Source: an uncultured Candidatus Saccharibacteria bacterium (GTDB lineage Bacteria > Patescibacteriota > Saccharimonadia > Saccharimonadales > Saccharimonadaceae). From it: a DNA stretch of 64,000 bases. The notes below the pieces were generated by a model, which had not been told where the DNA came from, did no database searches, and was given only the letters and a program-made list of their open reading frames with translations. The translations under genes were made by a program, and so were the position numbers. Position 1 is the stretch's first letter. Each line of letters begins with the position of its first letter. Shown here piece by piece: positions 3,524 to 56,623 of this stretch. The DNA lies in NCBI GenBank assembly GCA_964480265.1, contig CAYZNY010000006.1, positions 1,219 to 65,218 of the forward strand, written 5' to 3'.

Positions 3524-6500
3524 CTAATACCTTGGTGCCAGTTCCCTAGCATATGCATCGGTATAACTAGAATCATAACGCCCGGCTTGCGCAAATGACC
3601 ATAAATATGACAAAGCACTGAGATTGAACACTTCGCTAGATGTATTTTTAAAGGAACTTATGCCGTAGGCAAGATTATCGGCACCATAAGTCCGGTTCAG
3701 CGTCACCGACTTAGCAACCACCGGGCCATTGATTTGTAACCGATTATCGCAAGTGGTGTTTTGGTTACGATAGACGCTCTGGGTCTCGGTCGTCTTTTCT
3801 ACCCAGTCACTGCAAGTATTGATATTGCCATTTGCAATAATCCAAGCATCAAGCCTTGTCACACTCGGGGCAATCTCTACGTTTCCATCAACATAAATCA
3901 CGACTTGTGGCATCTCGTAAATCGTCTTGCCGCTGGTATTTGCCAGTTCAACATTGCTAGAAATAGTCAAAGTACCATTCTCCCCACCCGGATTGAAGTA
4001 GAGAATTCGCGTGTCGCCTACGCCCACCGCTCCATCATAAGACTTCTCCTCCTGGTCGGCGTTTGTCGCATGGCTCTTCAAATAAGCCGACAGCCTGGTA
4101 CTATATGAAGAATTATAGTTGATACCCGAATTACCGAGCGTAGTTCCATTGGCTACTAGTCCTATATTCGTGATTGTCTGCCAAGCCATATCCCATTGAT
4201 TACCGCTGACTAAGCCCGGGATACCGGCGCCATAGGCCCCGCTCGATGCAAACCGAGAAACTTCGCCTTGGGCTGCCACGATATTCTCGGCCCACGAACC
4301 ATAGGTAGTCTTCTCGCTATCATTATTAAGCTTGGTCGGCTGGCCATTATTTGCTTCGTTATGCCTTGGCGCGGTGGAAGACGACACCCCCGCACCAGAG
4401 AACAGGCTGCCATTCCATACTGCAAAACTTGGTTTCTTGGCAATCGTGCGGCAAGTGGCACTATAATTCGTCCAATAATCTTTGCCGGGGACATAAGTCC
4501 AAGTTGCAACATCGTCGGTCAAACCGCTCGCATCACTAGCTTTCGCAACGCCCCACCAATAGCCCCATTTGTAGCCATAGGAGTTGCAATACTTCCCACC
4601 AACGTTATCCGGAACAGCGATATCAAGTTGCTGCGTGAATGCATCCTGCTCGCTATTATTCGGGGTCGGAACAAGCTGGGTAGCCTTCCCGGCAATACCA
4701 TCGGCATTTTCTTCGATACTCAACCCATCACCGCTAAACTCAGCACAGTTCGCCCCACCAAACGATATCAATCGACCTCCACTCTTCGTGCGGAAATAAT
4801 TACATGGATCACTCGACACGTGGCCGCCAGCATTGACGACGCTTGCGCCTGTGACGTCATCCCGCACTACAAAACCTATCGCAGAATAATCCTTCACCCG
4901 GCGAGTCGGGACGGACTTTGCTGCAACTTTCCAGCCAATACCAGTGTGCTCGCCGGCATACATGATATCGGATGCGCTATCGCCGCCATTCTTAGGGCCG
5001 TATGGATCCGGGTCACCACCCTCAGGTGGATCTGCCGGGCGCGTGATCTCGATGCAGGCTTCAGAGTCCTCGGAATCGTTATTGGCTTGTGGAGTGCCGT
5101 AGTCCCATCGAGGACCAATAGACCACGGACCAGTCCAGATCAAGCTCTCCGTAATTGGGGTAGTATAAGTCTTCGGACTATATTTAATCTTGTGGCAAAC
5201 TTTATAAGTTTTGCCTGCCTCCATACCAGAAATTGTATAAGTATGGGTAGATACTTCTTCTCCGCCATTGTCTGTATCTTTATCGGTGCCAGCTTTATAG
5301 GTCGCGTCTTCGTCGTTATTATTCTCTACAACACCACCAGTATCACCGGTCAGTTCATAGCTTAAATTAGTCTGCGAGCCAACATACACCCAGTCACCAT
5401 TGCAAGAACCGTCGGCATTGGTCGAAATACACCCATCCCAATAACGCCACATATTTCTTGTCCAATCCGTCCAATCGAAATCCATATTATGCGAAAGTGT
5501 AAATTGCAAAGAGTCACTATCGGTGCTGACTTTGAGCCCGACCGCAGCATCCTTATCCGAAGTCTGTTTGCCGGGGTCGTACCCACCAAGCTGAGCACTG
5601 GCGTTCGGAACCTGCACGCTAGAAGTTGCCCAAAATTCATCCTTAGGCTCCGCAGGTTTGTCGATACGCTTCGCAACAACACAAACCGATGTGTGCGCAC
5701 GTCCTGTTTCTTTAACAATATCTCCACCGTCTGCGCTAGTAAAAACAAAGCGTAGTGGCTCAATGGTCATAGTCTGGCACTTTGTCGCAGTCGACCCGAC
5801 GTTATCAAGTTGTAACGTGTATGGCTTGTTGCCGACATTGGTATGCTCCTTCTTCTTTTTCCAAGGCTCGATCTCCCAATCCGTAGAACAAAGATCTCTA
5901 CCACCGCACGCGTCAACATCTCCATCGGCGATATCATACCAAAGATCTAATCTAAAACTACGATCAGACCATCGTTTTTTGGTTTCATCCCAGCTAGAAT
6001 CTTCATTTTGATAATACTGGTTATGCCACATATTCCCAGATACACTGCTATTAGATGTTTCCACAGTAATAGTCATAACATTATTCTTACCAAAACCAGT
6101 GCTGTCCGGGCCAACATCCGCCCCAGTCTTGGAGCCAGAAACCCCGTTAACGCTGACTCCCGAGTTGGCGGTCACATAGCCCTTACCTTTTGTCTCGTCA
6201 GTATAGTCTGAACAAAACCATGTGGTATTACCCCATGCGGCATCATCCGGTCCAATCAAGTTTAACTCCTTTGCTTTATCGTGTTGAGCTTTAACATCAT
6301 TCCATTTTTCTGTCCCCGCCAGACTTTCAATAACATTATAGCTTCCAGACCCACCCGCATAAGTAGGCTTCACTTGGTGTACCTGGACACCAGGATTAAA
6401 TGCTTGCTCACCCACAAATGACCAACTACTGGCCGAACTACCTTTTTTGACTTTCTCATAGGCAAGCACAAAGTAGCCCTTAGCCCCGATCGCACTACAC

Positions 6501-6733
6501 CTTGATTTCGCATTTGCATTTGCATTACTATTTACTTTGTAATATCGCCATGATACACCATAATGCCCACACCATGTTACTTTACTTACTGCGGTCGTAC
6601 ATTTACTTGTGCTGCTTGCAGTATCCTCGCCATCACTTTCGTAATCGCTTGCAAAAACCGCACTGGACATTGCCAAACATCCCAACACAATACCAGAGAT
6701 CAATAACGGGATTATCTTTCTACGTGCTAACAT
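3524..6733 (-). CDS. large secreted protein (1069 aa), function unknown; candidate pilus-associated adhesin
   Basis: It has a Sec-type signal peptide, MLARRKIIPLLISGIVLGCLAMSSAVFA|SD. Its start abuts the stop of the upstream gene, and the PilX-like gene follows it in the same operon. Confidence 0.75.
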   Translation of the reverse strand: MLARRKIIPLLISGIVLGCLAMSSAVFASDYESDGEDTASSTSKCTTAVSKVTWCGHYGVSWRYYKVNSNANANAKSRCSAIGAKGYFVLAYEKVKKGSSASSWSFVGEQAFNPGVQVHQVKPTYAGGSGSYNVIESLAGTEKWNDVKAQHDKAKELNLIGPDDAAWGNTTWFCSDYTDETKGKGYVTANSGVSVNGVSGSKTGADVGPDSTGFGKNNVMTITVETSNSSVSGNMWHNQYYQNEDSSWDETKKRWSDRSFRLDLWYDIADGDVDACGGRDLCSTDWEIEPWKKKKEHTNVGNKPYTLQLDNVGSTATKCQTMTIEPLRFVFTSADGGDIVKETGRAHTSVCVVAKRIDKPAEPKDEFWATSSVQVPNASAQLGGYDPGKQTSDKDAAVGLKVSTDSDSLQFTLSHNMDFDWTDWTRNMWRYWDGCISTNADGSCNGDWVYVGSQTNLSYELTGDTGGVVENNNDEDATYKAGTDKDTDNGGEEVSTHTYTISGMEAGKTYKVCHKIKYSPKTYTTPITESLIWTGPWSIGPRWDYGTPQANNDSEDSEACIEITRPADPPEGGDPDPYGPKNGGDSASDIMYAGEHTGIGWKVAAKSVPTRRVKDYSAIGFVVRDDVTGASVVNAGGHVSSDPCNYFRTKSGGRLISFGGANCAEFSGDGLSIEENADGIAGKATQLVPTPNNSEQDAFTQQLDIAVPDNVGGKYCNSYGYKWGYWWGVAKASDASGLTDDVATWTYVPGKDYWTNYSATCRTIAKKPSFAVWNGSLFSGAGVSSSTAPRHNEANNGQPTKLNNDSEKTTYGSWAENIVAAQGEVSRFASSGAYGAGIPGLVSGNQWDMAWQTITNIGLVANGTTLGNSGINYNSSYSTRLSAYLKSHATNADQEEKSYDGAVGVGDTRILYFNPGGENGTLTISSNVELANTSGKTIYEMPQVVIYVDGNVEIAPSVTRLDAWIIANGNINTCSDWVEKTTETQSVYRNQNTTCDNRLQINGPVVAKSVTLNRTYGADNLAYGISSFKNTSSEVFNLSALSYLWSFAQAGRYDSSYTDAYARELAPRY

Positions 6734-7501
6734 TTAGTCTCCCTCATGTAATTTAATATCTGCATCCTCTTCCAATTGTCGGTATTTTTCTGCCATCTCT
6801 GCGTCGCCTAAGGCAATGTAGGATGACTTAATAGCGGCATACACCAAGCTCTGCTCTTTTGAGCTAAGCGCATTAAAATCAAGTTGCTGAGATACATCTA
6901 TTACTTCGTCATACTCGCTATGTTGAAACAGGGTGATTAGCTCTGCTGCCTGGATGGCGTTCCTCTGCTTCTGGTCATTACTCGCCGATACTGCGTTCTC
7001 TGTTGCCGCCCTAACGCTGCCTATACCTTGCGCTCCAGAATTTTCTCCCGCCGATGCCTCATTATCTATTCCCGAAATTGACCGCAACTGAGTTAAATAT
7101 TTTTCAACAGCACTATTATCCCCATCGCTATCCCCCTCATAACTATTGCCAAGAGTTAATTCCGTTGGTTTTTTCTCATGATCTTTCGGCGATACTAGCA
7201 TCATAATCATCCATATGGTAGCCCCCATAATTGCAATGGTCAACACGCCCAAAACAATCCAAAACCACAATGGCCGCTTCGTTCTTACTCTTGAACCATT
7301 TTGAGGGAATTGTTTTGTCTTTTTAGCCTCTTTATCTTTTTTGTCTTTAACTTTCTTGACTTTTTCTGATTTGTGTTTTTTGCCCGAGCCAATCTTGCTA
7401 GCATCAAAACCAGCGTTTATAGCCGAAGTAGGCTTCACCGGTTGCACCGGGGCCTGATTCTGCACCTGCGGTGCAGTTGCACCCTTTCCCTCCTCGTTCA
7501 T
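6734..7501 (-). CDS. bitopic membrane protein: K-rich disordered N-terminus, one TM helix, helical/TPR-like C-terminal domain
   Basis: The TM segment is LWFWIVLGVLTIAIMGATIWMIMMLV. The C-terminus is similar by eye to 13039..13731. It is the first gene of its operon, with TGcTATAAT 7 nt upstream of the ATG (leaderless-type). Confidence 0.7.
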   Translation of the reverse strand: MNEEGKGATAPQVQNQAPVQPVKPTSAINAGFDASKIGSGKKHKSEKVKKVKDKKDKEAKKTKQFPQNGSRVRTKRPLWFWIVLGVLTIAIMGATIWMIMMLVSPKDHEKKPTELTLGNSYEGDSDGDNSAVEKYLTQLRSISGIDNEASAGENSGAQGIGSVRAATENAVSASNDQKQRNAIQAAELITLFQHSEYDEVIDVSQQLDFNALSSKEQSLVYAAIKSSYIALGDAEMAEKYRQLEEDADIKLHEGD

Positions 7502-7612
7502 GCTTATGATTATAGCATACTTTAACTCATTTTTATAATTTCACAAAGAATTGGCTCGCATTTCTGCGAGCCGTTACTTAAGGTGCTTTATTATGGGGGG
7601 ACATTTAAGTCA

Positions 7613-8806
7613 TCACCATTCCGATTTGGGAATATTTAACTTATAGACTATAATCTCATTGCCCATAGATACTCCATCAAATGTTTCATAGACCGCTTTT
7701 CTGCGTTCAATTAAACTAAATTGTTGCAACTGTTGTGTTTTCTTGATTTTCTTGATTGGCTTGACCTTTTTGTAAGGGCGACGATAAATTACATCCCTAT
7801 CCCAAACAAAAAAACCGACGTAATCATTATACGGTTCAAGTGCCCCATTCTCCAAGATTGCATAGCGTATGCCACCACTACGTGTCCTAACTTTAATCCT
7901 TGCTACTTCGCTCACTGCTCCCGAACCCTTCAAATGATCAAACTCACCAATGTTAAAGGCGGCGCATATTTTACATATTGCTATGGCATAGTCTAAGCAA
8001 TCACCATATGCTTTCTTTTTGAATAATGCCTTAAACGATTCATTCTCATCATTCCTTGAATCGGAGTGCCGCATTGACGCCCCCTCCCAGCTTTTACCGT
8101 CTGACCCTATTTCCAGCACTATTCTCGCCTTCATAGCACTTGATAAATTCCGGAATTTTGTTCCATGAAGGTACTTGCTCAATTCTTTCAAATTAGCAAT
8201 TGTCGTTTGCGTATCCAAGTATAGCTGTGCCCTGCTTTTATAATTAGCTTCATCCACCATAACCGTTCCAGACTGTAAGCCAGCGGCTAGATTTTCCGAT
8301 TCCTTCAATAGCTTGTCAATATACGCTCTAAACCCTTTGTATTCTTGTTCTACAAATTTAATGCCATAAATATACTCCTGGCAATGGAATTTCTTGACTA
8401 TGAATGTTGTATATTTCCCATTCTTCTTAGGATTATTATTCGTTCCATTCACATCAAAGTAAAGCGAATCTTTCATGCATATCGGAAACACATCAAACCC
8501 CACATCAGTCTGCTTAGCAACTTTCTTAGTCAGCTTCTGAAACTTCTTATAGAAGCTTTTCTCGCCGCCCTTGAACCGGATCGTAAAAGCTTTACCTTTC
8601 AAAAGCTGCTGATGAACCTTTTTGGCGGTCTTCTGATCAATCTTTTTGACCGTTATAACCTTGGCTTTCGCCTTTGCCTCCACCTCTGTCTGCTGGCAAA
8701 CTACGCTGCCTACCAAAATAAGTCCAAAGGTTAACAGTAATCCAGCCGCCATTGTTAATATGGGGCCAAGAAACAACTTGCTACAAAAATCATTTTTCAC
8801 CTTCAT
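7613..8806 (-). CDS. membrane-anchored transglutaminase-like cysteine peptidase domain protein
   Basis: There is an N-terminal signal anchor. The motif AYGDCLDYAIA fits the G-x-C-x-x-(F/Y)-A nucleophile context of transglutaminase-like proteins. GGAGGG lies upstream of the ATG. The gene sits in a visibly AT-rich segment. Confidence 0.5.
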   Translation of the reverse strand: MKVKNDFCSKLFLGPILTMAAGLLLTFGLILVGSVVCQQTEVEAKAKAKVITVKKIDQKTAKKVHQQLLKGKAFTIRFKGGEKSFYKKFQKLTKKVAKQTDVGFDVFPICMKDSLYFDVNGTNNNPKKNGKYTTFIVKKFHCQEYIYGIKFVEQEYKGFRAYIDKLLKESENLAAGLQSGTVMVDEANYKSRAQLYLDTQTTIANLKELSKYLHGTKFRNLSSAMKARIVLEIGSDGKSWEGASMRHSDSRNDENESFKALFKKKAYGDCLDYAIAICKICAAFNIGEFDHLKGSGAVSEVARIKVRTRSGGIRYAILENGALEPYNDYVGFFVWDRDVIYRRPYKKVKPIKKIKKTQQLQQFSLIERRKAVYETFDGVSMGNEIIVYKLNIPKSEW

Positions 8807-8966: not shown

Positions 8967-8995
8967 ATAGTTGAGGGGCGAAGCCCCTCAACTAT
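8967..8995 (-). terminator. 13-bp perfect hairpin overlapping the stop codon of cassette a
   Basis: ATAGTTGAGGGGC-gaa-GCCCCTCAACTAT on the plus strand. It lies between cassette a and the promoter of the next gene. Confidence 0.5.
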
Positions 8996-9279
8996 TTCGC
9001 AACACAGCGGACGGCAAAACCTTGGCCGCGGATAGAGTAGGACTGTGAATCGACGTAGACACCATTGGAAAAGGAAAAGAATAAGAGATTGTTTGCAGAT
9101 TCAGATGAATATGCCGAGTGTGACCAGTAGTACCCTTCTGAGCCTAGTGCGCTTAATGATCCGATATTGTAATAATACTTACCTCCTAACTCAAACCCGA
9201 GCGGCGCGCTACGTAACTGGGTAGAACCGGAGAAGAAGTTAGAAATGTTGTAGTGCGCCGCTCGAAAAACATATCCCGT
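8992..9279 (-). pseudogene. cassette a: start-less C-terminal half of a Fibrobacter-succinogenes-major-paralogous-domain (FISUMP, lectin-like) protein
   Basis: The open frame between stops reads TGYVFRAAHYNISNFFSGSTQLRSAPLGFELGGKYYYNIGSLSALGSEGYYWSHSAYSSESANNLLFFSFSNGVYVDSQSYSIRGQGFAVRCVAK*. It contains no ATG, GTG or TTG. The YWS...G(F/L)(A/S)VRCV ending is the hallmark of that domain family. Confidence 0.7.
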
Positions 9280-9285
9280 CTATGC

Positions 9286-9313
9286 TTGTAGTTTTCTCAA
9301 AATTTGCTATATG
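9286..9313 (+). promoter_or_regulatory. candidate promoter of ncRNA unit 1
   Basis: TTGTAG, 16 nt, TGcTATATG. The predicted start is about 3-4 nt before the closing stem of the RNA. Confidence 0.45.
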
Positions 9314-9319
9314 CTGGAA

Positions 9320-9593
9320 GATAGGACGACAGAGCGCCATGCTACACCGCTCTACGAGAAACTTTAACAGCGGGGAGAAAGGAAGGAGTATGGGGCTCAC
9401 ACTAACCATACGCGTATGGAAATTACGCATAAAAATTAGTTTAGGCAAAGCCCAAACTAATAAAACCCTATCTATATCCTAGCACGCTAATCGCAGACGG
9501 TCAACACCATGTGGGCCGATAATCTACGATTATCGGCCCATCTGCGAAGTGAAACAATGCTAGTGGTGTAATAGCTCTGTCGTCCAGTTTTTT
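9320..9593 (+). ncRNA. unclassified structured ncRNA, unit 1 (about 262-nt core at 9324-9585)
   Basis: The 5' GGACGACAGAGC pairs with the 3' GCTCTGTCGTCC, and a T6 run follows. Internal hairpins include a perfect 12-bp stem, GGGCCGATAATC/GATTATCGGCCC. It is paralogous to unit 2, with compensatory changes between the two. Confidence 0.55.
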
Positions 9594-9600
9594 GATTTAC

Positions 9601-9807
9601 CCTCTCAACTTTCTCCGTACGGGGCACTACTATCGTGCAAATGGTAATATTAATGCTCGTACTCATCATGCTAATTGGTGGTCCGATACAAATATATCTG
9701 CATTTAGTGCATACAACTTGAATACCCGACCAGAGTCTATTGGAAATCAAAGTAGTAGCAACCGTGGTTACGGTTTTGCCATCCGCTGTGTAGTACGGGA
9801 GGGGTGA
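9601..9807 (+). pseudogene. cassette b: start-less FISUMP-like C-terminal fragment (second subfamily)
   Basis: PLNFLRTGHYYRANGNINARTHHANWWSDTNISAFSAYNLNTRPESIGNQSSSNRGYGFAIRCVVREG*. It lies between the 3' ends of the two ncRNA units. The only upstream in-frame start is a TTG inside the RNA terminator, with no RBS. Confidence 0.65.
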
Positions 9808-9840
9808 AATTCGTAGGAAACGGATGAAGAAAATCAGATT

Positions 9841-10106
9841 AAAAATCATGGAACGACAGAGCTACTACATCGTCGGCATCACCTCAACTTCGCGAGGAGT
9901 CTGACCGAAGGTCTTGACTCCTCGCGATCAGCATGCTAGGATGTAAATAGGTTGTTGATTGGTTTAGGCTTTGCCTAAACCAATTTTTACGCTAAGACAT
10001 AGCTTGCCTAGGCGCAGGGTAAGCTGAGCTTCCATTCCTATCTCTCCTTTCTCCCCGCTGTTAAAGTTTCTCGTAGAGCGTGTAGCATGGATGCTCTGTC
10101 GTCCTG
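9841..10106 (-). ncRNA. unclassified structured ncRNA, unit 2 (about 254-nt core at 10104-9851), paralogue of unit 1
   Basis: On the minus strand GGACGACAGAGC...GCTCTGTCGTTC closes the unit and is followed by a T-run. The first 65 nt or so are nearly identical to unit 1. The internal hairpin CGCGAGGAGTC...GACTCCTCGCG replaces the unit 1 hairpin at the same position. Confidence 0.55.
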
Positions 10107-10112
10107 ATCATC

Positions 10113-10141
10113 ATTATACCTCGTGCACCGACACAAAACAA
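10113..10141 (-). promoter_or_regulatory. candidate promoter of ncRNA unit 2
   Basis: On the minus strand: TTGTTT, 17 nt, TATAAT. The -10 ends 8 nt before the closing stem. Confidence 0.5.
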
Positions 10142-10322
10142 CCATATTTTTGCACTTTTCGCCCTTGTTGTAGCAAGGATAGTATCGGTCCCCCTCCCTA
10201 TCATATAGCAAATTTAGATGAAAGTACAAGCGTAAGCATGAAACTTCACAACTTTACGTTTAAAATGGTCAAAAATCTTGATTTTAAACGCAAAGACCAA
10301 TGCGCTTTGGCTACTCAGCCAC

Positions 10323-11318
10323 CTACGTCCCCGCCGTGCGCGCCGCAAAATTAAACTTATTGATACCACAATAGGTGAATTCTGACCCGACAGTTAGCAG
10401 CTCGCCGTTATCTTCGGTATAATCTTGTACATCACAATAATCACCCGAGCGCTCGATGTTCACATTACCCCGGTCCGTACCCAGGATAAATGTACCGGTC
10501 ATGAAGGTGCGCAGCGTCACTGCATCCTGCGAAATCGGAAAGATCGTCAACTCATAAAGCTGCAAATTGACATCCGACGCCGTGAGTAGTCCCTCGGTCG
10601 GGTCCGGGATGCGATTTGCACTACCATTAGCAAGCTGTGTAATGTCAACTTCAAGCGTGCCACCCCCGTCGACTTCCATCATATTCTTTCTATAACCTTC
10701 GTCTGGGCTGACCAACGCTGAACAAACTCGATAAGTCGGATCATAAACCTGTGCCAACCGAAACTTCCCCGACGACGGATCTTCTGGCAGATTCCCCTCC
10801 GAGCCATCGGATTTTAGATATTTGAGCGCTATTGCCACTTTCTTGTTTGCCGTATGCTCCAAACCATAGTATGTATTCCAAATATAAGAATAGTTGCCCG
10901 TGCAAAATACTCCACCCAGTTGCACGTTGTGATTTTCTTTTTCTGCCCGCCTAGTATTGTCAGAATAAGTACCGGTGCGCTCTTGGAAAATAAACTTATT
11001 CGCAAAATCAGCTTTACATTCATCAATCGCCGCCGCTGCCGCGGTCGAGCTGGCCTTAAAATAACTATTACAGAGACTAGTCGTATCGACCGATGGCGCC
11101 GCATTGATATTCGCCGTGAACTCGTCAATCAACCCGCGGCCAGTACTATTGACGGATTTTAGCGTCAGCCCCTTTTGATAAATTTGCGTCACCATACCGG
11201 CTACCACCGTAATCGAAATCAGCAAAGTCGCGATAAACGCTGTCGCTAGCGAAAACTCTACAATCGTAAAACCTTGCAAACTTTGCTCCATCAAAGGTTT
11301 TTTCTTTTTTCTAAGCAT
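10323..11318 (-). CDS. type IV pilin-like protein (pseudopilin/minor pilin)
   Basis: It has a prepilin-type N-terminal cleavage/methylation motif, SLQG|FTIVEFSLATAFIATLLISITVV. It overlaps the upstream gene by 8 nt. Confidence 0.8.
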   Translation of the reverse strand: MLRKKKKPLMEQSLQGFTIVEFSLATAFIATLLISITVVAGMVTQIYQKGLTLKSVNSTGRGLIDEFTANINAAPSVDTTSLCNSYFKASSTAAAAAIDECKADFANKFIFQERTGTYSDNTRRAEKENHNVQLGGVFCTGNYSYIWNTYYGLEHTANKKVAIALKYLKSDGSEGNLPEDPSSGKFRLAQVYDPTYRVCSALVSPDEGYRKNMMEVDGGGTLEVDITQLANGSANRIPDPTEGLLTASDVNLQLYELTIFPISQDAVTLRTFMTGTFILGTDRGNVNIERSGDYCDVQDYTEDNGELLTVGSEFTYCGINKFNFAARTAGT

Positions 11319-20499: not shown

Positions 20500-21930
20500 T
20501 TAGCGCAACTGTTTGCGGCTAGCTAGGAAGTAGCCCGCAGCAGTCACCACTGCGCCAGTAGCGATTACGCCACCAGTCACAGCCATCGGACCAGTATTCG
20601 GGAGCGAGCTCGGAGTGTCAGTAGTTGGCACATCCGGCATTTCGTTTGGAGCACAAACTTTGTTGGTGCGTACCATGGCAGAATCCTCATTCAAGGTGTT
20701 GCCATAGCTTGCCTGACCCCAGTTGTAGATGAAGTTCTCACCACAAGCAAGATCAGTATCAACCACTTCTGCGGTAAAGCGGATATACGCATTACCACCG
20801 TTTTGGCCATCGGCGCTACCAACGTAGCTACCGATGTTCACACCACGGGTTACAATGTCGCCATCCGGAGTGAGGGTAGCCCACTGTGGGTAGCTTGCAT
20901 TGTAAAGCTTAGTTGTGCCAGGAACATATTTTAGGTTACCTGGAAGAACGTCGCGAATCATCACGTCGTTCTGGGTCTCAGTGCCAGTGTTGTTGTACTC
21001 GATTTGGAATTCGACTTGGTCACCGATTTCAGCATCAACGACCTCTTTCCATTCCGTTTCGCCTAGTTTGCGAACTTTCTTCTCAACTGTGTATGGTGCG
21101 TCAAAGACGGCCTTCACGCGAATTGTGATATAGCTCGAATACTCATAACAACCCGGAACGTTACCATCAAGGGCATCAAACCCAATCAAGGTACCATCGT
21201 TGCTGCCAGCTTTCTCGACGATATCGTCAGAAAGTGGCTTACCAGTGATCTTCTGAGCTTTCAATTGCTCGTCGGTAGCAGTCATCATGTCTGCGGCCGA
21301 GATTGGATCAGTCGTGCCAGTAGCACCACGGTTATAGATCATTGCCGAGCCATAGACATAATCTAGGTGGAATGAGGTGTTGCTATTGAAGCGGACGTAG
21401 TCCCAGTACTCGTGTGGGGTTGCGTTCTCCGAAGTAATAAAGCCGTTCAGCTCAACTTCTTGCTTACCATCTTTGTTGGTCTTGCTCTGCCAGGTACCGT
21501 GCTCGTTCACGCCGCTAATTGCGACCTTGGTACCAGTAGATACACCAGCAGTACCCTTCGGGCTGTTATTGTGGACATAAAGACGCACAATGTATTCTTG
21601 GCCATCTTCGACGGTAATATCGCCACCTTCCCACATACCGTGTGGGTCAATTGCGAGACCATCCGGAGCAGCTTTCTGCACCGAGGTAAAGTCAATCTCG
21701 TTACCAGTCTCAGCGACATCGGTAATCGAGTTGAAGGTAATTTTGTTACCTAGCGCACCGTTATTGATGTCAGCTAGTTTATAGAGGGTACGGAATTGAC
21801 CTGCCTGGCCACCCTCTAAGTAGGTACTGTCACCCCAAGCCGTAACAGCATAGGGGACAGCAATTGCTGCACCTGCAACAGCAGCGGCACCAGCCGTCAC
21901 TGCCAAGGTATTTTTGATAGCTTTTTTCAT
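20500..21930 (-). CDS. LPXTG-anchored cell-surface protein
   Basis: It has a signal peptide and a C-terminal sorting signal: LPNTG, a hydrophobic stretch, then RKQLR. The internal segment ...GDQVEFQIEYNNTGTETQNDVMIRDVLPGNLKYVPGTT resembles DUF11/pilin-like Ig-fold repeats. Confidence 0.8.
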   Translation of the reverse strand: MKKAIKNTLAVTAGAAAVAGAAIAVPYAVTAWGDSTYLEGGQAGQFRTLYKLADINNGALGNKITFNSITDVAETGNEIDFTSVQKAAPDGLAIDPHGMWEGGDITVEDGQEYIVRLYVHNNSPKGTAGVSTGTKVAISGVNEHGTWQSKTNKDGKQEVELNGFITSENATPHEYWDYVRFNSNTSFHLDYVYGSAMIYNRGATGTTDPISAADMMTATDEQLKAQKITGKPLSDDIVEKAGSNDGTLIGFDALDGNVPGCYEYSSYITIRVKAVFDAPYTVEKKVRKLGETEWKEVVDAEIGDQVEFQIEYNNTGTETQNDVMIRDVLPGNLKYVPGTTKLYNASYPQWATLTPDGDIVTRGVNIGSYVGSADGQNGGNAYIRFTAEVVDTDLACGENFIYNWGQASYGNTLNEDSAMVRTNKVCAPNEMPDVPTTDTPSSLPNTGPMAVTGGVIATGAVVTAAGYFLASRKQLR

Positions 21931-24124: not shown

Positions 24125-24381
24125 ACTGACGCACCCCCTTCCTTGTTCATGTGAATGTGATCGTTTTGTTTTTTATAATCACTACCAGGGGGTACCAACC
24201 CCCAGTAGGAGTTGGCGAACCAACTACCAACCAGCCAATCCGGCTGATCGTTAGACACGATATATATCAACAGATACAACCTCGCAGTTACCATTATGGC
24301 AACGGTATTGTATCTGAGATGATTCGATTGTTAAGTGGACCTCTGGCCGGGCCGCTCCCGTAGCTCTTCCAGACTGCTTCC

Positions 24382-24410
24382 ATTGTAGCACACATCGTCA
24401 AAAAAGTCAA
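24382..24410 (-). promoter_or_regulatory. consensus sigma70 promoter for 22139..24124
   Basis: On the minus strand: TTGACT, 17 nt, TACAAT. It leaves a leader of about 250 nt. Confidence 0.65.
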
Positions 24411-24672
24411 TAGTTTTTCTATATTTTAGGCATAAAAACAATAGAAATAAGCGTTATAGGTATAAAACAGAGGTGAAAAAGCCGCGCCCTAGCATTTTGA
24501 AATGCTTATGTATAGGGGTGATATAAACTTGACCGTTATAACAGTAAAATGCTTTTGCTAAAAACTTTGTCGATTTCTTGTCAAGAACATGACATTTTGG
24601 GCATGAAAAAGGCCCACCCGATATCCAGGTAAGCCTTCCCAACGTGCTAAGGTGTCAAATTTCGTGGTTTCA

Positions 24673-25899: not shown

Positions 25900-25996
25900 A
25901 GAAACACCTTCCTTTCTGTAAATGTGCCACCCCCTGTGGGGCGGCATTTGGTTTTCGTTGATTGACACCTGCCGCCCAAAATGGGCCTCTGCTTCC

Positions 25997-26025
25997 ATTG
26001 TATCACAGATTACCAAAAATGTCAA
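25997..26025 (-). promoter_or_regulatory. consensus sigma70 promoter for 24673..25899
   Basis: On the minus strand: TTGACA, 17 nt, TACAAT. Confidence 0.65.
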
Positions 26026-26098
26026 TAGTGTAAAATGTATCTTGATTACCTTGCAAGAATATTACAATACCAAATCAAAACTGTTTTCATACGAATAG

Positions 26099-26407
26099 TT
26101 ATATAAAGGCTGGACCTTACCTTCCTCCGCCGATTATGCGAATCTTATCACCACTACCTACAATATCCCTAACTCCTCCTCCGGTTCTACCCAGCTACGT
26201 AGCGCGCCGCTCGGGTTTGAGTATACGGGTAGTTATGTGTATTTCAGCGGTTCATTAACTCAGATCGATATAGCTGGTAGATATTGGTCTCGTTCAATAC
26301 ATTCTGATAGCGAAGCTTACAATCTAATCTTTGAGTCTGCTGATGTTTCTCCACGGTCCTATTATCGTCGTGGAGATGGTTTTGCCGTCCGCTGTGTTGC
26401 GAGATAG
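26099..26407 (+). pseudogene. cassette c: start-less FISUMP-like fragment (longest copy, begins at the GW.LP core)
   Basis: The open frame after a TAG stop reads LYKGWTLPSSADYANLITTTYNIPNSSSGSTQLRSAPLGFEYTGSYVYFSGSLTQIDIAGRYWSRSIHSDSEAYNLIFESADVSPRSYYRRGDGFAVRCVAR*. There is no usable start codon and no RBS. Confidence 0.7.
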
Positions 26408-26484: not shown

Positions 26485-26577
26485 GGAGGGTTACCCAAGT
26501 GGCTGAAGGGGACGGTTTGCTAAATCGTTAGTCTGGGGAGACCTGGAGCGGGAGTTCGAATCTCCCACCCTCCGCCA
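26485..26577 (+). tRNA. tRNA-Ser(GCT), class II, CCA encoded
   Basis: GGAGGGTTACCCAAGTGGCTGAAGGGGACGGTTTGCTAAATCGT + long variable arm + GCGGGAGTTCGAATCTCCCACCCTCCGCCA. Confidence 0.9.
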
Positions 26578-26590
26578 TAGGGGATTTTTC

Positions 26591-26611
26591 GACCTTTTGA
26601 AGGTCTTTTTT
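26591..26611 (+). terminator. intrinsic terminator of tRNA-Ser
   Basis: A GACCTT/AAGGTC hairpin followed by T6. Confidence 0.6.
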
Positions 26612-26842
26612 GATGGTTCTACCCAGTTACGTGGCGCGCCGCTCGGGTTTGAGTATACTGGCATTTATAACTACGATGGCTCAGTGAGTACTGTCGCCTA
26701 CGGGTACTATTGGTCGCGCTCGGCAAGATCAGATATAGCTACCTATAACTTCTACTTTGGGTCTAGTTTTGTAAATCCGCAGAGTAGTTACTTCCGTGGT
26801 AACGGTTTTGCCGTCCGCTGTGGGGTGGAACGTAAGGAATAA
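26612..26842 (+). pseudogene. cassette d: start-less FISUMP-like fragment that begins exactly at the conserved head
   Basis: DGSTQLRGAPLGFEYTGIYNYDGSVSTVAYGYYWSRSARSDIATYNFYFGSSFVNPQSSYFRGNGFAVRCGVERKE*. The listed TTG start lies inside the tRNA terminator. Confidence 0.65.
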
Positions 26843-26949
26843 CCAAGTTCGCTTTGAACATTGAAAGACACCACCGAGGCCTGCCCGTGACCGAGCTTTG
26901 GTGTAGCGTCAGGGTATGTTCAAAAAGAACTATCCTATCCCCTATTCCT

Positions 26950-27182
26950 TCACCCCTCCCATACTACACAGCGGATGGCAAAACCGTGTCCGCAGTAATC
27001 GTTACCCTGAGGGTCGACATTCGTCAGGTTCGTATGCAGGTAGCGACCGTACGCAGCCGAATAGCTAGCATCCGACCACCAGAGGCCACCTACGGTACGA
27101 TTGAAGATGTAGCCATTGGAACGACCGTAGAGGCCCGTACGGAGAAAGTTGAGAGCGGCGCGCTACGTAGCTGGATAGAACC
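26950..27182 (-). pseudogene. cassette e: FISUMP-like fragment with head and body in different frames
   Basis: The body reads LNFLRTGLYGRSNGYIFNRTVGGLWWSDASYSAAYGRYLHTNLTNVDPQGNDYCGHGFAIRCVVWEG*. The head (GSIQLRSAP) is joined to it out of frame, because the junction is 2 nt longer than in a, c and d. Confidence 0.65.
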
Positions 27183-27202
27183 GGAGGAGATTTACCGTTA
27201 GA

Positions 27203-29852: not shown

Positions 29853-30419
29853 ATGGCTAGACCGTCAAAATACAACAAAGAACTAGTAGCGCAAATTGTC
29901 GACTATATCGCTGATGGGCTAACTATCCGTGATACTTGCTATGGGGCTGGGATATCTGAGGACACTTTTTGGAGATGGAATCGAGAAAAGCTAGAGTTTG
30001 CTGAAGTTATCAAAGAAGCTACCAATCGCCAAAAGTGGACTAGCGAAGCTTTGAAGCGTACGAGCGAGTACCGAAGGTACACGAGAAAGGCTCATATCTA
30101 TTCTAGAAAGACGCTGAAGCGTCAGAAGCCTGTCCGTGTTCGTATCGCATCAGAAAAGCCCTTAGAACGAGCCCTAGAAGCCTCAGAGGGCATAATTAGC
30201 CAAAACACTGGTAGACGGCAGCCAAGTCCAAGAAATATCCTTCCGACTCGTTCTGAGGCTCCGATTAATGCTTTTGGTGAATTGGTATTCTCTAGGCCCT
30301 ACTACAACCAAACTACCGACCGAGTTGAATGGATTGAGAAAGAAACCTACGGTAGATATGTCCTCCACTCGTGTAGGGTGGAAGTGTGGGAGGAATCGTT
30401 AGCAAAGAATGAGGGATAG
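29853..30419 (+). CDS. HTH DNA-binding protein resembling phage terminase small subunits
   Basis: The N-terminus MARPSKYNKELVAQIVDYIADGLTIRDTCYGAGISEDTFWRWNREKLEFAEVIKEA follows the RPSKY...I...G.S...C...GIS..TF..W...EF pattern common in phage small terminase/HTH proteins. Confidence 0.4.
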   Translation: MARPSKYNKELVAQIVDYIADGLTIRDTCYGAGISEDTFWRWNREKLEFAEVIKEATNRQKWTSEALKRTSEYRRYTRKAHIYSRKTLKRQKPVRVRIASEKPLERALEASEGIISQNTGRRQPSPRNILPTRSEAPINAFGELVFSRPYYNQTTDRVEWIEKETYGRYVLHSCRVEVWEESLAKNEG

Positions 30420-32548: not shown

Positions 32549-34231
32549 ATGGACGGCATTAGAAAAAAGGCCTATGGTTACAGACGCGTTTCTACCGTAG
32601 GGCAAGTAGACGGAGCTTCTCTGGGAACACAGACAGAGAAAATAACAAGTTATGCAGAAGCAAACAATATCGAAATCGTGGATTGGTTTGAGGATCCAGG
32701 TTATTCAGCGAAAGATGCTAATAGGCCAGACCTTCAAAGAATGCTTGAGTCAATCAAGAAACACAAGGGTGAAGTTGACTTCGTTATCATTCACGACAGC
32801 ACACGGTTATCCAGAAACCTAGCTTCTTTTTATGTCGATATTTGGCCCACGCTGCACAAGAACGGTGTACGGCTCTTATCAGCAACAGAGAATTACGGCG
32901 ACGAAAAAGACCCGACTGGCGACATTCCAATGATTTTCGGTGTTCTTACTGGTCAAATTGACAATAAGAATAAATCTAATTCTACTAAAAATAATATGGA
33001 TGACCTTTTTAGCAACAGTGGCTGGTGGATGGGTGGCAGAACGCCACTAGGATATAGGATTGAACGCATATTCGTTGAAGGAAGGCAGCGCGATGGTCAT
33101 CAGAAGTCCCACGCCATACTGGTGCCAGACAACACCAATGGTCTTGCAGATAAAATTGCTTTTTTGCTTAACCGTTTTTCCGAGGGTGATTTGTTATCAT
33201 CGGATCTACTTCAAATCGCCCATAAAATAGATATCCGCGGCTTCAAAGGTGAACTGCTCGCGCAAAGCACTCTAGATGGCATCTTAACAAACGAAATCTA
33301 TGCTGGATATCATACATCAAAAACGATGGCCAACCAGCAAAGGGTTAAAATGAGGTTCGGAGGCATAATATCGTTAGAGACATACGAGAAAAATCAAAGA
33401 ATTATAAATAAAAATGGCAAACCCCACGAAAAGAGTAATGAATTGGAATATCCACTCAGCAAAACTGCTTGTTGCGCTATTTGTGGCGCAATGATGACCG
33501 ACGAGGAAAGAGAAGTAAAAACCACAAAAGGCAAGCTTCCATACCTTCGTTATAGCGCACCAAAAAGTGGTTCCGGCAAGCACACTCCACGCTATAGTTG
33601 TAAATGTAGAGGACACGGATCTATTCGTGCTTCCGATGCCCATCAGATTTTTGAATGCTATCTCAAGCAAATTACGCCAACCAAAGAAATGGTAAAGTTA
33701 TTCAAAGAGATTGTGAGACGCACGGCCCTCAAAAAACTCGGCAATACCAATAAACAAATTAGCGAGCTTGAAGCAAAAAGTAAAGAGATTCGGAATGATA
33801 AAGAAAATGCTCTTAAGAAGCTTTTAAAGAACGATATGGGGCTCGACGACGGTGAACAGCGAGAGCTAATGGGGTCATATGATGCCGATCGTAGTAGGAT
33901 TGAGTCTGAACTCGCAGATCTGAAGCAAATCCAGTTATTGAGAGAAGCCGACATTGAGTATGTCTGCAACTTTATGAGTATGCCAGCTAAACTTTGGCGA
34001 GATGGCGATTTAGAGACTAAGCAAGCTATTCAAAAGATGATTTTTCCAAATGGCATATATTTTGACCTCAAGAATAAAAAGTGTGGAACCAACGAAATTA
34101 GCCCTCTGTTCTCTGTTACAGACATCAAAAAAGCACCTTCTGGTGCAGATTTGAATGCTCTGGGGTGGGATATCGGAATTGAACCGACGACCTTCTGGAC
34201 CACAATCAGACGCTCTAACCAACTGAGCTAA
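32549..34231 (+). CDS. large serine recombinase (resolvase-type catalytic domain + recombinase domain + zinc ribbon + coiled coil)
   Basis: The N-terminus is YGYRRVSTVGQVDGASLGTQ...DPGYSAKDANRPDLQRML...FVIIHDSTRLSRN, with the catalytic Ser in RVST. Cys clusters are CCAICG...YSCKCRGH. The last 35 codons or so are antisense to the tRNA-His terminator and tRNA-His. Confidence 0.85.
   Translation: MDGIRKKAYGYRRVSTVGQVDGASLGTQTEKITSYAEANNIEIVDWFEDPGYSAKDANRPDLQRMLESIKKHKGEVDFVIIHDSTRLSRNLASFYVDIWPTLHKNGVRLLSATENYGDEKDPTGDIPMIFGVLTGQIDNKNKSNSTKNNMDDLFSNSGWWMGGRTPLGYRIERIFVEGRQRDGHQKSHAILVPDNTNGLADKIAFLLNRFSEGDLLSSDLLQIAHKIDIRGFKGELLAQSTLDGILTNEIYAGYHTSKTMANQQRVKMRFGGIISLETYEKNQRIINKNGKPHEKSNELEYPLSKTACCAICGAMMTDEEREVKTTKGKLPYLRYSAPKSGSGKHTPRYSCKCRGHGSIRASDAHQIFECYLKQITPTKEMVKLFKEIVRRTALKKLGNTNKQISELEAKSKEIRNDKENALKKLLKNDMGLDDGEQRELMGSYDADRSRIESELADLKQIQLLREADIEYVCNFMSMPAKLWRDGDLETKQAIQKMIFPNGIYFDLKNKKCGTNEISPLFSVTDIKKAPSGADLNALGWDIGIEPTTFWTTIRRSNQLS
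34127..34146 (-). terminator. intrinsic terminator of tRNA-His, inside the recombinase ORF
   Basis: On the minus strand: GCACC-agaa-GGTGC followed by T6, 15 nt after the tRNA CCA end. Confidence 0.55.
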
Positions 34232-34238
34232 TCCCACC
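34161..34238 (-). tRNA. tRNA-His(GTG) with extra 5' G(-1), CCA encoded
   Basis: The reverse complement is G-GTGGGATTAGCTCAGTTGGTTAGAGCGTCTGATTGTGGTCCAGAAGGTCGTCGGTTCAATTCCGATATCCCAC-C-CCA. Confidence 0.85.
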
Positions 34239-37056: not shown

Positions 37057-37173
37057 ACAAATTCCCCCTTTTTTTATATTTTTTGAGAAAATTTGCTGCA
37101 AACTTTTAATTTACCTAAGGCCCTACGCCTTAGGTATCGAGCCCGCAGCGTAATTTATTAGCCTTATGCTTTC

Positions 37174-37202
37174 ATTGTAGCATAGATTGGCAAAAAAGTC
37201 AA
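37174..37202 (-). promoter_or_regulatory. consensus sigma70 promoter for 36643..37056
   Basis: On the minus strand: TTGACT, 17 nt, TACAAT. Confidence 0.6.
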
Positions 37203-37223
37203 TAGTTTAAGCATATTTTATGG

Positions 37224-45511: not shown

Positions 45512-45524
45512 AATCTATCTCTCT

Positions 45525-45553
45525 ATTGTATCACAGATAGCTGATTTTGTCAA
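45525..45553 (-). promoter_or_regulatory. consensus sigma70 promoter for 44714..45511
   Basis: On the minus strand: TTGACA, 17 nt, TACAAT. It overlaps the 3' end of the upstream gene. Confidence 0.6.
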
Positions 45554-46709
45554 TACCGTTTTGCTGAGCAAAAGCACGATTCTCGTCAATCACCTTTTGA
45601 TATTTCAATGCAAGATCTTCTCTGTCCTCCATTTTTGCGACCTCAATCGCCAAATCATAGCGCGAGGCCTGGTTCAGGCTCAGCATTTCAAACGGTGTAG
45701 TTGTGCTGCCCTGCTCATTATATCCATGGATATGCAGCCTCTTACCATCGGTATATTCGGCCAAAATCGACTTCAAAGCACCGGCATAGCCATGGAAATT
45801 GCCAATAATCGGAACTTTCTTTGAGAATAGTTCGTCGAACTTCTTCTGGCTAAGTGTCTTGCCGACTAAGCCGATTTTACCATAACTGAGAGCACAAATA
45901 TTCACAAAACGGAATTTCTTATCTGGCAAATCTCCCCGCAAAATCTCGATTGCGCGAATCGCCTCGCCCGAGACAATATCCCCCGCTCCGATCAAAACAT
46001 AATCTGGCTCGCCATCATCAGAAATAAAATCTAGTACACCCGCACCACCATCGTGCAACATCTGATCGGCCTGATGCGAATCGATCCAACGTGGTAAATC
46101 AATCTTGTTGAAAGTATTAAGATTTACTACGTCCTGCGATTTCAGCATATAAATCATACTCGCCTCAGCTGCAACATCGTCAATCGGGAAAAGACAATTG
46201 GCTAGACCACTGGGATTACCAAGCAGCATCGAGACTAGCTCTGGCGATTGGTGAGTGAAACCATTATGATCCTGCCGCCAACAAGTACTGGTCGAGAGCA
46301 AATTGATTGCTGGAATCGGCTCGCGCCAGGCTACTGATTTTGATTGTTTGATAAATTTTAGCTCTTGCATCACCTGCGAGCCAATAATCGTGAAGAACGA
46401 CTCGTAGCTAGTCATTGCGGCTGGCTCACCATTCATAAGGTGCCCAACCATACAGGCGAATAGCGCATTCTCAGAAAGCATTTCCACGATATGCCCATTT
46501 GGTGACTCGGGCAAATCCCAGGCCTCCTTTGGTAAATCCCACAGGCGGCTACTAACCTCATAAACCACGTCAAGCTTGTTGCTGGTAGTTTCGTCGGGCG
46601 AGAATAAATAGAAGTCGTCGTGATGCAACATATAGCTCGCCAAGACGGCACCAATCTTCTTGGCCGGAGAGAATAGATCCTTGCCAGGGTTTTTGACTTG
46701 ATCAATCAT
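45531..46709 (-). CDS. xfp: phosphoketolase, C-terminal two-thirds (separate ORF)
   Basis: FYLFSPDETTSNKL matches the FR.FGPDE..SNRL block, and the remainder resembles the XFP middle and C-terminal domains. The start ATG overlaps the stop of the N-terminal ORF (ATGA). Confidence 0.8.
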   Translation of the reverse strand: MIDQVKNPGKDLFSPAKKIGAVLASYMLHHDDFYLFSPDETTSNKLDVVYEVSSRLWDLPKEAWDLPESPNGHIVEMLSENALFACMVGHLMNGEPAAMTSYESFFTIIGSQVMQELKFIKQSKSVAWREPIPAINLLSTSTCWRQDHNGFTHQSPELVSMLLGNPSGLANCLFPIDDVAAEASMIYMLKSQDVVNLNTFNKIDLPRWIDSHQADQMLHDGGAGVLDFISDDGEPDYVLIGAGDIVSGEAIRAIEILRGDLPDKKFRFVNICALSYGKIGLVGKTLSQKKFDELFSKKVPIIGNFHGYAGALKSILAEYTDGKRLHIHGYNEQGSTTTPFEMLSLNQASRYDLAIEVAKMEDREDLALKYQKVIDENRAFAQQNGIDKISYL

Positions 46710-47809
46710 TGCAAAAATCCTTTCTTGGCATCAAATAGCTCGTTAAACTCATAGCTTTTCAGCCAGCTGCTTAGCATTTTTAGCTGCTCGGGGTCGGTCT
46801 TTGCCTCCGGAAGCGGAATTTGATGGGCAAGATAATTCCCCGCTACTTTTTTACCATCAAGCTCTTTCGGGCCAGTTTCGCCTTTCTCGCTTCTGAAAAT
46901 AATAAACGGATGCTCAATCCTAGCCGACTCGCGCAAAGCAGCCTGGAAAACATCCGGCGCATCACCCTCAACCCACAGCGGCGTATATCCAAAACCACGC
47001 ACAAGCTCTGAAAGCTCACGCCTAGACTTGCGGCCATAAACCGTTGGACCGGAGATCTTGTATCCATTCAGATGTAGGATCGGCAAGACCAAACCATGAT
47101 AATGCTGATCCCCCACTAGCTTAATAAGATTTAATGACGCCAGTGCAGTGGCGGTTTCTAGCTCGCCATCTCCTAACATAACGGCAATGGTTTGCTCCGG
47201 GTGACCAAGCGCAAGCCCATAAGCTGCCCCCAGTGCATAACCGAGCTCGCCACCCTCACAAACTACACCCGGCGTAATCGGGCTAGCATGTGACGGGAAC
47301 CCCCCTGGCCAAGAAAAATTATGACAAATATAAGCCAAGCCATCCGCATCACGTGTCGCCTTGGGATCGACGGTTTCTAAATCTCCGTCATAAAACAAAT
47401 TTGCCTGCAAAGCTGGAAAACCGTGGCCCGGCCCAAGGATAAACCGAAAATTCTCACAGACTTCGTTTTTGATAGACTTTCTCGGTAGACGGTCTCGAAT
47501 AGCAATTGCCTGCTCGGTCGCAACCTTGGTTTTGGACCGCCCTGCCGCCCGCAGCACCGCCTCTCGGTCGCTATCGCTGGCAGTCGCCCCTTGACCCTCC
47601 GGGCAAAAATAAGCTCGCAAATTTGCATAAGCAACGTTGATCCCGTGACAAGTCCCCCAGTGGCCAAGCAGGCGCGGCTTGATATCCTCCGCCGATAGAG
47701 GTTTTTCAAGCAAAAAATTATTTTGCAAAAAAAGTTGCGCCACCGCGAGATAATCGCACGCCCGCACGCGCCGTTGAATCTCCTCATTACCTCCATGGTG
47801 ACCATTCAT
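46706..47809 (-). CDS. xfp: phosphoketolase, N-terminal thiamine-diphosphate-binding part (separate ORF)
   Basis: It has LLGHWGT and the XFP signatures EGGELGY and GDGELETA. Relative to my memory of canonical enzymes, there is an insert after GHWGT. TGcTATAAT lies 7 nt upstream of the ATG. Confidence 0.8.
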   Translation of the reverse strand: MNGHHGGNEEIQRRVRACDYLAVAQLFLQNNFLLEKPLSAEDIKPRLLGHWGTCHGINVAYANLRAYFCPEGQGATASDSDREAVLRAAGRSKTKVATEQAIAIRDRLPRKSIKNEVCENFRFILGPGHGFPALQANLFYDGDLETVDPKATRDADGLAYICHNFSWPGGFPSHASPITPGVVCEGGELGYALGAAYGLALGHPEQTIAVMLGDGELETATALASLNLIKLVGDQHYHGLVLPILHLNGYKISGPTVYGRKSRRELSELVRGFGYTPLWVEGDAPDVFQAALRESARIEHPFIIFRSEKGETGPKELDGKKVAGNYLAHQIPLPEAKTDPEQLKMLSSWLKSYEFNELFDAKKGFLQ

Positions 47810-47867
47810 ACTTATGATTATAGCATAGTTTTCCTCCGTTTTACCTTAATTATGATACAATAAGCTT

Positions 47868-56495: not shown

Positions 56496-56579
56496 ATCTC
56501 ATCGCCCCCTTTTCTACTTTTATGACAATTTTAAGCATTACAATACTAGACTGTCGCCGTACGACAGCCTTATCTCTCC

Positions 56580-56608
56580 ATTGTAGCACACATTGCTAAT
56601 TTTGTCAA
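56580..56608 (-). promoter_or_regulatory. consensus sigma70 promoter for the radical-SAM gene
   Basis: On the minus strand: TTGACA, 17 nt, TACAAT. Confidence 0.6.
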
Positions 56609-56623
56609 GTATAGTACCAGATT

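Follow-up and report, generated by a model that had tools for sequence, protein, structure and literature searches.

Diversity-generating retroelements (DGRs) are generally seen as acting on the ends of ligand-binding genes that are expressed. Both these elements and the CLec2 class of their targets are already known. CLec2 is a published DGR target class (DUF1566 / DUF823 / Fib_succ_major; PMC5758913), and its type example is Legionella LdtA, category 'd' in the same study (PMC5758913). A variable repeat (VR) lying outside any coding region has been described only once, as an oddity, in Pelodictyon (PMC3521204).

We analysed a 64-kb stretch of DNA from an uncultured Saccharibacteria bacterium, here called the window. 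It holds five short lectin-type fragments, cassettes a to e, which an initial annotation had read as the silent cassettes of an antigenic-variation system. A scan of a genome collection provided 56 further loci for comparison, from gut and rumen Saccharibacteria metagenome-assembled genomes (MAGs) and from mouse-gut Lachnospiraceae genomes. The cassettes are probably (about 70%) orphan copies of the VR end of CLec2-class DGR target genes. Family membership, the adenine signature, and the mutagenesis of start-less units are seen in the relatives, from which we infer the origin and the behaviour of the window copies.

Five start-less lectin fragments in the window

Five copies of the 19-nt tail GGTTTTGCCRTCCGCTGTG are present in the window and none in shuffled sequences, confirming that the cassettes form a five-member family. 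In all five, the frame is open across the whole homologous stretch and the stop codon lies at the homologous site or within a few codons of it (Table 1). None has a convincing start: cassette b contains an in-frame TTG at 9592, and no GGAGG-type ribosome-binding site is visible upstream from it when the sequence is read by eye. In a Pfam search, four cassettes, a to d, aligned with the C-terminal portion of Fib_succ_major (PF09603), and a, b, and d matched positions 126/127–185/186 of 187. E-values for a to d range from 9e-5 to 0.07, and their scores (13.9–23.2 bits) are all under the gathering cut-off of 33.9 and short of a whole-domain match, which is expected because the cassettes are part-domains. 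Cassette e has no Pfam match and was placed in the family by nucleotide alignment and by a tblastn match to a full-length target.

Table 1. Positions of the cassettes, the structured RNA copies, and an adjoining tRNA gene (coordinates in the window unless a locus is named).
Feature	Position	Strand	Remarks
Cassette a	8992-9279, stop to stop	-	putative a/c/d-type orphan VR fragment; homology ~8995-9262; no start codon
Hairpin of cassette a	8967..8991	-	perfect 13 bp, 3-nt loop; begins at the stop codon of a
Cassette b	9553-9807, open frame, stop to stop	+	homology from 9601
Cassette b unit	9601..9810	+	b/e type: CCTCTC, then AACTTTCTCCGTACGGG ... GGTTTTGCCATCCGCTGTGTAGTACGGGAGGGGTGA
Cassette c	26099-26407	+	longest of the five; Pfam model positions 69-186
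Cassette d	26507-26842, open frame	+	homology 26615..26842
Cassette e	26950-27162, open frame	-	homology up to ~27190
Arm RNA, left copy	9320-9590	+	directly 5' of b, same strand
Arm RNA, right copy	9846-10108	-	inverted, convergent with b
Arm RNA, third copy	L004 5419-5691 (RACS_029)	+	just upstream from a b-type unit; opposite-facing unit on the other side
tRNA-Ser	26485-26577		c ends 78 nt before, d starts 38 nt after; surrounded by c, d, and e

The ends of the cassettes are conserved and their cores are divergent. Cassettes a and c are identical at 45/48 positions of the head, 79/168 of the core, and 19/19 of the tail; for b and e the figures are 22/23, 68/143, and 39/44. Overall, heads and tails of the window copies are 89–100% identical and cores ~48%. 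Cassettes a, c, and d differ from one another by indels as well as by substitutions, and in cassette e an a/c/d-type head of ~45 nt is fused upstream from the b-type head. Cassettes b and e retain ~94% of the nearly invariant columns of the family (60/64 and 59/63, respectively), and differ from every other unit at no less than 34% (b) and 22% (e) of sites. Thus, b and e are not freely decaying, because they keep the columns that hardly vary elsewhere. At the 3' end, the recipient-type, G/C-rich ACGGGAGGGGTGA is present in b and e and absent from the template L015 described below. The hairpin of cassette a (−14.8 kcal/mol, z = −7.1) occupies the same place as the hairpin of canonical DGR VRs. 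No VR-type hairpin was found at b, c, d, or e, and c and d also lack the G/C-rich 3' recipient element.

We looked for the hallmarks of a DGR in the window. Neither a motif scan (DGR-clade criterion: [LIV]GxxxSQ in motif 4 plus YxDD) nor Pfam on 40 large ORFs revealed a reverse transcriptase in the 64 kb, and tblastn with the reverse transcriptase of a complete DGR (L008, see below) gave no match at E-values up to 1. The window contains no copy of the template leader. When b and e are treated as a template/VR pair, 33 of their 80 mismatches fall at adenines of b, so the pairing fails. No complete lectin-fold target ORF with a VR on its C-terminus is present in the window, a to e being start-less part-domains, and no full-length expressed gene there has matching flanks.

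Much of what the initial annotation had described is borne out by these results: start-less, C-terminal lectin fragments that belong to one five-member family, flanks conserved well beyond chance around divergent cores, and no expression locus in the window. It had extended cassette a to 9279, and homology starts near 9262.

Homologous repeats in related genomes

Three related genomes have full DGRs with this repeat type, in which a target gene is joined by a reverse transcriptase and by a template rich in asparagine codons, and the VR departs from the template at template adenines only. In the Saccharibacteria genome MGBC122299 (L008), the target is a secreted protein of 563 aa that matches Fib_succ_major above threshold (34.8 bits), and it is accompanied by an accessory gene and a reverse transcriptase (RVT_1, 1e-13; GNLTSQ...YVDD motif). 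The N-rich template of L008 (9164-9375, minus strand) lies on the opposite strand and differs from the VR only at template adenines. In L059, which is laid out in the same way, the target (P0014) is 499 aa long and shares 51% identity with cassette c; accessory gene, reverse transcriptase, and template are all present. Three VRs in RGIG2268 each carry 16–20 mismatches to the template, 100% of them at adenines. Canonical VR hairpins, of 13 bp in L008 and 10 bp in L059, stand just past the end of template homology, and the 5' edge of template/VR homology in L059 and L015 corresponds to the head of the b-type unit. L015 is an AAY-rich template copy in RACS_029 (16 AAY codons, 25% adenine). L015 (5757-6201) and L008 share a leader of ~240 nt before the template, found also in L063 (10001-10436), and this leader appears to have its own promoter. 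No reverse transcriptase was found within 10 kb of the template loci L015 and L063, which come from two samples of one species.

The b/e unit is essentially fixed in length, since 60 of the 61 copies in these loci and the window are exactly 204 nt long; the remaining one, in L039, is 207 nt. Homology begins at (CCTCTC)AACTTTCTCCGTACGGG and ends at ...GGGAGGGGTGAGA(GAGG), and the sequence outside is unrelated among copies. In the 56 loci, b-type copies lie in short open frames: the in-frame stretch is put at no more than 109 codons, or at less than 115 in all but a few cases. Similarly, all 50 proteins among the matches listed for the b/e unit are 62–112 aa long, with unrelated N-terminal junk. 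The initial annotation had proposed a search for an intact gene with matching flanks: for the b/e type, no full-length gene was found among those 50 database matches or in the 56 loci, whereas the a/c type is found both terminating long proteins and repeated in tandem within ORFs. Scaffold codons show a pN/pS of ~0.3 across units, a constraint that we read as inherited from translated or templating ancestors. A tblastn search of phage and plasmid collections with the unit peptide gave no match, and a protein word search with cassette e gave no candidates.

Mismatches between start-less units and the template are concentrated at adenines. Some 20 units of RACS_029 have 65–92% of their mismatches to the L015 template at adenines. 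L060 and L061 show the same start-less unit locus, upstream from rpoB, in two strains or samples. The flanks of this locus differ at 8 positions in ~1640 nt (99.5% identity) and the unit core at 22 sites over a span of ~130 nt; compared with the L015 template, 24/28 and 19/24 mismatches of the two units fall at adenines. Judged from these alignments, start-less units are still being rewritten at template-adenine sites in the relatives.

Some units at different loci, in unrelated surroundings, have the same contents down to the state of each adenine site, and the identity begins and ends exactly at the unit boundaries. The unit at L039 9181-9384 is identical to that at L051 2571-2774; the unit at L004 5741-5944 is identical to L006 6217-6420 and nearly so to L060 3139-3342, which comes from a different assembly. 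Other near-identical pairs are mosaics whose differences are confined to the ends. Because identical contents occur at different loci, units are evidently copied from unit to unit in the relatives as well as mutated, with the proviso that most relatives are MAGs and some repeat identities could be assembly artefacts. Two related islands have flanks that are 85–100% identical around unit cores that are 42–54% identical, and the changes extend beyond adenine sites and include synonymous ones. In L046, the DNA between two units is deleted relative to L035 and L018.

The tandem array of six cassettes in RGIG2268 has 41–72% of its template mismatches at adenines and carries a stop and indels, a pattern that fits older, decaying copies. 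Head-to-tail arrays of four to six start-less VR cassettes are found in L012 (5568-6992), P0006, and P0029. The cassettes in these arrays begin upstream from the template limit and end before the 3' recipient element, and their non-adenine divergence increases along the array. In RACS_029, a GGAGG and an ATG are present at the long a-type copy (L004 5945-6294, P0002), together with a short leader of lipoprotein type, MGFSLFLLLVC. It is thus possible that real small lipoprotein genes exist among the half-domain copies; cassette c of the window has no such leader.

A structured RNA and the surroundings of the cassettes

Cassette b is flanked by two copies of a sequence with a predicted conserved fold, which we call the arm, and a third copy is present in a relative (Table 1). 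The arm RNA is ~265 nt long and its fold is closed by a 12-bp terminal stem. The three copies have 70 pairs in common, 12 of them with compensatory changes, and fold with z-scores of about −8. We assigned the strand because of the many G-U pairs. Upstream from the right arm, ~125 nt of conserved sequence (10109-10234) include a TATAAT box. A search of Rfam under gathering and E-value thresholds returned only tRNAs and noise, a covariance model detected no more copies in 468 kb of related loci, and exact scans of viral and metagenome collections with the arm core returned none. The sequence of the arm is unrelated to that of the true template leader. The arm is a candidate structured RNA, previously undescribed.

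The cassettes have company that recurs in another phylum. Four window genes (3524-6733, 6734-7501, 7613-8806, and 20500-21930) have homologues that are 41–58% identical (best 50–58%) in Lachnospiraceae, in genomes that include isolates, and these homologues adjoin b-type units (loci L018, L025, L035, L041, L046-L049). Likely serine recombinases, judged by their N-terminal motif, are encoded near them. Since the homologues stand beside units there as well, the cassettes seem to ride on, or sit in, an island common to both phyla, and the gene comparisons hint at gene flow between Saccharibacteria and Lachnospiraceae. The 397-aa and 331-aa neighbour proteins have no relatives in viral and metagenome collections, and exact look-ups returned none. 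The initial annotation had given weight to the proximity of pilus genes. This adjacency looks incidental, because the pilin-like genes have no partners in the Lachnospiraceae islands, and because the module of unit, structured RNA, and unit recurs in L004 in another context, where a search for homologues of these window proteins found none.

Three of the cassettes surround a tRNA gene (Table 1), and tRNA-adjacent units are also found in L039, L005, L050, L051, and L006. A tRNA gene is found no more than 150 nt away from 11 of the 53 units in the Saccharibacteria loci, whereas 2000 random trials gave 3.6 such units on average and 10 at most; because coding density is not part of the null model, the enrichment is a lead only.

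Several other explanations of the arrangement were considered and set aside. A shufflon or invertase is not indicated, as no constant region abuts any cassette and no recombinase is adjacent. The nearest upstream minus-strand gene, a pilin-like ORF, ends at 10323, which leaves ~1 kb to a and 430 nt to b, and the single recombinase of the window, a large serine enzyme, is encoded 23 kb away. No target-site duplications of the kind left by a miniature transposon are seen in the flanks. A variant genetic code that hides starts was dismissed because other window genes read well under table 11, and the antisense ORFs over b and e (9487-9849 and 26854-27201) are what a sense frame with NNC codon bias would be expected to produce. 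Pairing of head and tail of the b-type unit as a general recognition stem was also rejected: no such complementarity is seen in repeats of the L008 and RGIG2268 types.

Further features of the window deserve a record. The large serine recombinase (32549-34231, plus strand) overlaps tRNA-His (34161-34237, minus strand) with its 3' end. This may be the border of an integrated element that also contains a terminase-small-subunit-like HTH protein at 29853-30419. Phosphoketolase is encoded in two ORFs on the minus strand, 45531-46709 and 46706-47809, with a 4-nt overlap; one of them has XFP_N and the other XFP and XFP_C. The split may reflect a sequencing error, a frameshift, or a pseudogene. A repeat of 34–41 nt lies just before gene starts at 24374-24414, 25989-26029, 37166-37206, 45522-45555, and 56572-56612. 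Read on the other strand it contains TTGAC-N17-TACAAT, and it is probably a common strong promoter of leaderless or short-leader genes. A second promoter-like 39-mer is shared by 7497-7535 and 47805-47843.

Origin of the cassettes and comparison with known systems

How would orphan copies of DGR target ends come to look like the window cassettes? In such an element, the RNA of an adenine-rich template repeat (TR) is turned into cDNA by a reverse transcriptase that misreads adenines, and this cDNA takes the place of the VR. The core would be the mutagenised stretch and hence hypervariable. The tail of a, c, and d would stay conserved for want of adenines to mutate, and a G/C-rich stretch specific to recipients would come next (ACGGGAGGGGTGA in b and e); the head would be conserved by lying at, or just upstream from, the 5' limit of template homology. 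What the initial annotation had called recombination handles can be reinterpreted as these two features, an adenine-free repeat end with its G/C-rich recipient stretch and the limit of the template. The window copies would be passive recipients or leftovers, with the DGR enzyme and template outside the 64 kb or lost. The 3' ends of the orphans are of the recipient type, and in some of them target-gene sequence extends beyond the 5' template limit; they are therefore not simple insertions of template cDNA. We do not think that a to e are expressed on their own.

The cassettes had been proposed to be silent donors that feed, through gene conversion, a lectin or adhesin gene expressed from another locus, a process that could also act on top of DGR mutagenesis. 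Part of this proposal survives, because relatives do contain tandem arrays and signs of unit-to-unit copying: the same contents in units whose locations and surroundings are unrelated, mosaics with differences confined to the ends, the deletion between two units in L046, and divergent cores within well conserved flanks, with substitutions not confined to adenine sites. An orphan in L017 of MGBC122299 even carries exactly the VR of the expressed L008 target. Against it, the window has no expression locus, a b/e expression gene is likewise absent from the 50 matches listed and from the 56 loci, the array copies resemble decaying ones in having gathered a stop, indels, and changes away from adenines, and some of the identities could be artefacts of MAG assembly. 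The main diversifier in the family is, on the mismatch patterns, adenine-directed mutagenic retrohoming and not gene conversion from silent donors, and we regard silent donors as an improbable account of a to e. Decay without any retroelement or function, which would make the cassettes random remnants of Fib_succ_major genes, is less probable again. It is favoured by a window without start codons, reverse transcriptase, or template, by the indels among a, c, and d, and by two changes in e, Arg to Cys and Arg to Trp, at conserved positions. Such debris would hardly be expected to have discrete unit boundaries common to different phyla, with heads and tails identical at the nucleotide level, nor open frames in all five copies; b and e retain nearly all of the family-invariant columns, and the family is demonstrably linked to DGRs.

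Could cassette b itself be a template repeat, forming with the structured RNA the substrate of a remote reverse transcriptase? Of the 43 units with distinct cores, only the bona fide template is richer in adenine and in AAY codons than b. As in true templates, b lacks a start and follows, on the same strand, a conserved RNA region (~250 nt) that possibly bears a promoter. The 3' end of b is, however, of the recipient type and not of the template type. In b, Asn occupies only 6 of the 17 positions at which the template encodes asparagine; the rest are His, Tyr, Ser, Gly, and Arg, the typical products of mutagenesis. Moreover, e mismatches b at non-adenine sites, the unit downstream from the same arm RNA in L004 is a mutated VR, and the arm shares no sequence with the real template leader. 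We consider a template role for b the least probable of the accounts weighed here. The origin from DGR target ends has a bolder extension, which is tentative and in our view unlikely. In some gut Saccharibacteria, and in the island they have in common with Lachnospiraceae, DGR recipients would be dozens of stand-alone, start-less 204-nt units in place of genes, both adenine-rewritten and shuffled with unit precision, as a two-tier store of lectin-tip variants with a dedicated structured RNA beside some of them; a to e and the arms would then be parts of this store and not debris.

Taken together, these comparisons suggest that the machinery known from expressed genes keeps rewriting gene-less repeats, in genomes of <1 Mb that otherwise shed useless DNA. 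On one reading, the junk is produced and kept up by retrohoming itself, a point relevant to the recognition and the birth of recipient sites; on another, the orphans are a reservoir, or have a use independent of translation. As far as our literature searches reached, dozens of gene-less, still-mutated units per small genome, unit-precise copying, tandem arrays, and an adjacent structured RNA are undescribed. A practical rule also emerges: where start-less lectin fragments with conserved ends turn up in small-genome candidate phyla or gut Firmicutes, the adenine signature should be checked before they are called silent cassettes or pseudogenes.

The closest described systems are the CLec2 DGRs. 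The relatives L008, L059, and L016, whose repeats are homologous to a to e, resemble them in the lectin sub-fold, in a variable stretch at the extreme C-terminus, in an AAY-rich template with adenine-only mismatches, and in a hairpin after the VR. Unlike in those systems, the repeats described here are gene-less and number dozens in some genomes, the b/e type turned up in no long ORF, and the template locus can be >10 kb from any reverse transcriptase. The published maximum of remote DGR target genes is seven (Treponema, PMC5758913), compared with at least 25 units in the loci of the single genome RACS_029 that we examined. The arm resembles retron msr-msd RNA in its length, in the closing stem built from its two ends, and in having short conserved hairpins in the 5' half and a long hairpin with a variable tip in the 3' half; it is not followed by a reverse transcriptase gene, and the likeness is one of shape only. 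With silent-cassette systems (Neisseria pilS/pilE, Borrelia vls, Mycoplasma MgPa, and Anaplasma msp2), the family shares partial copies that lack a promoter and have variable cores between conserved flanks, both dispersed and in tandem, and, in relatives, the signs of copying between units. It departs from them in that no expression site is found here and in that the bulk of the variation bears an adenine signature, which those systems lack.
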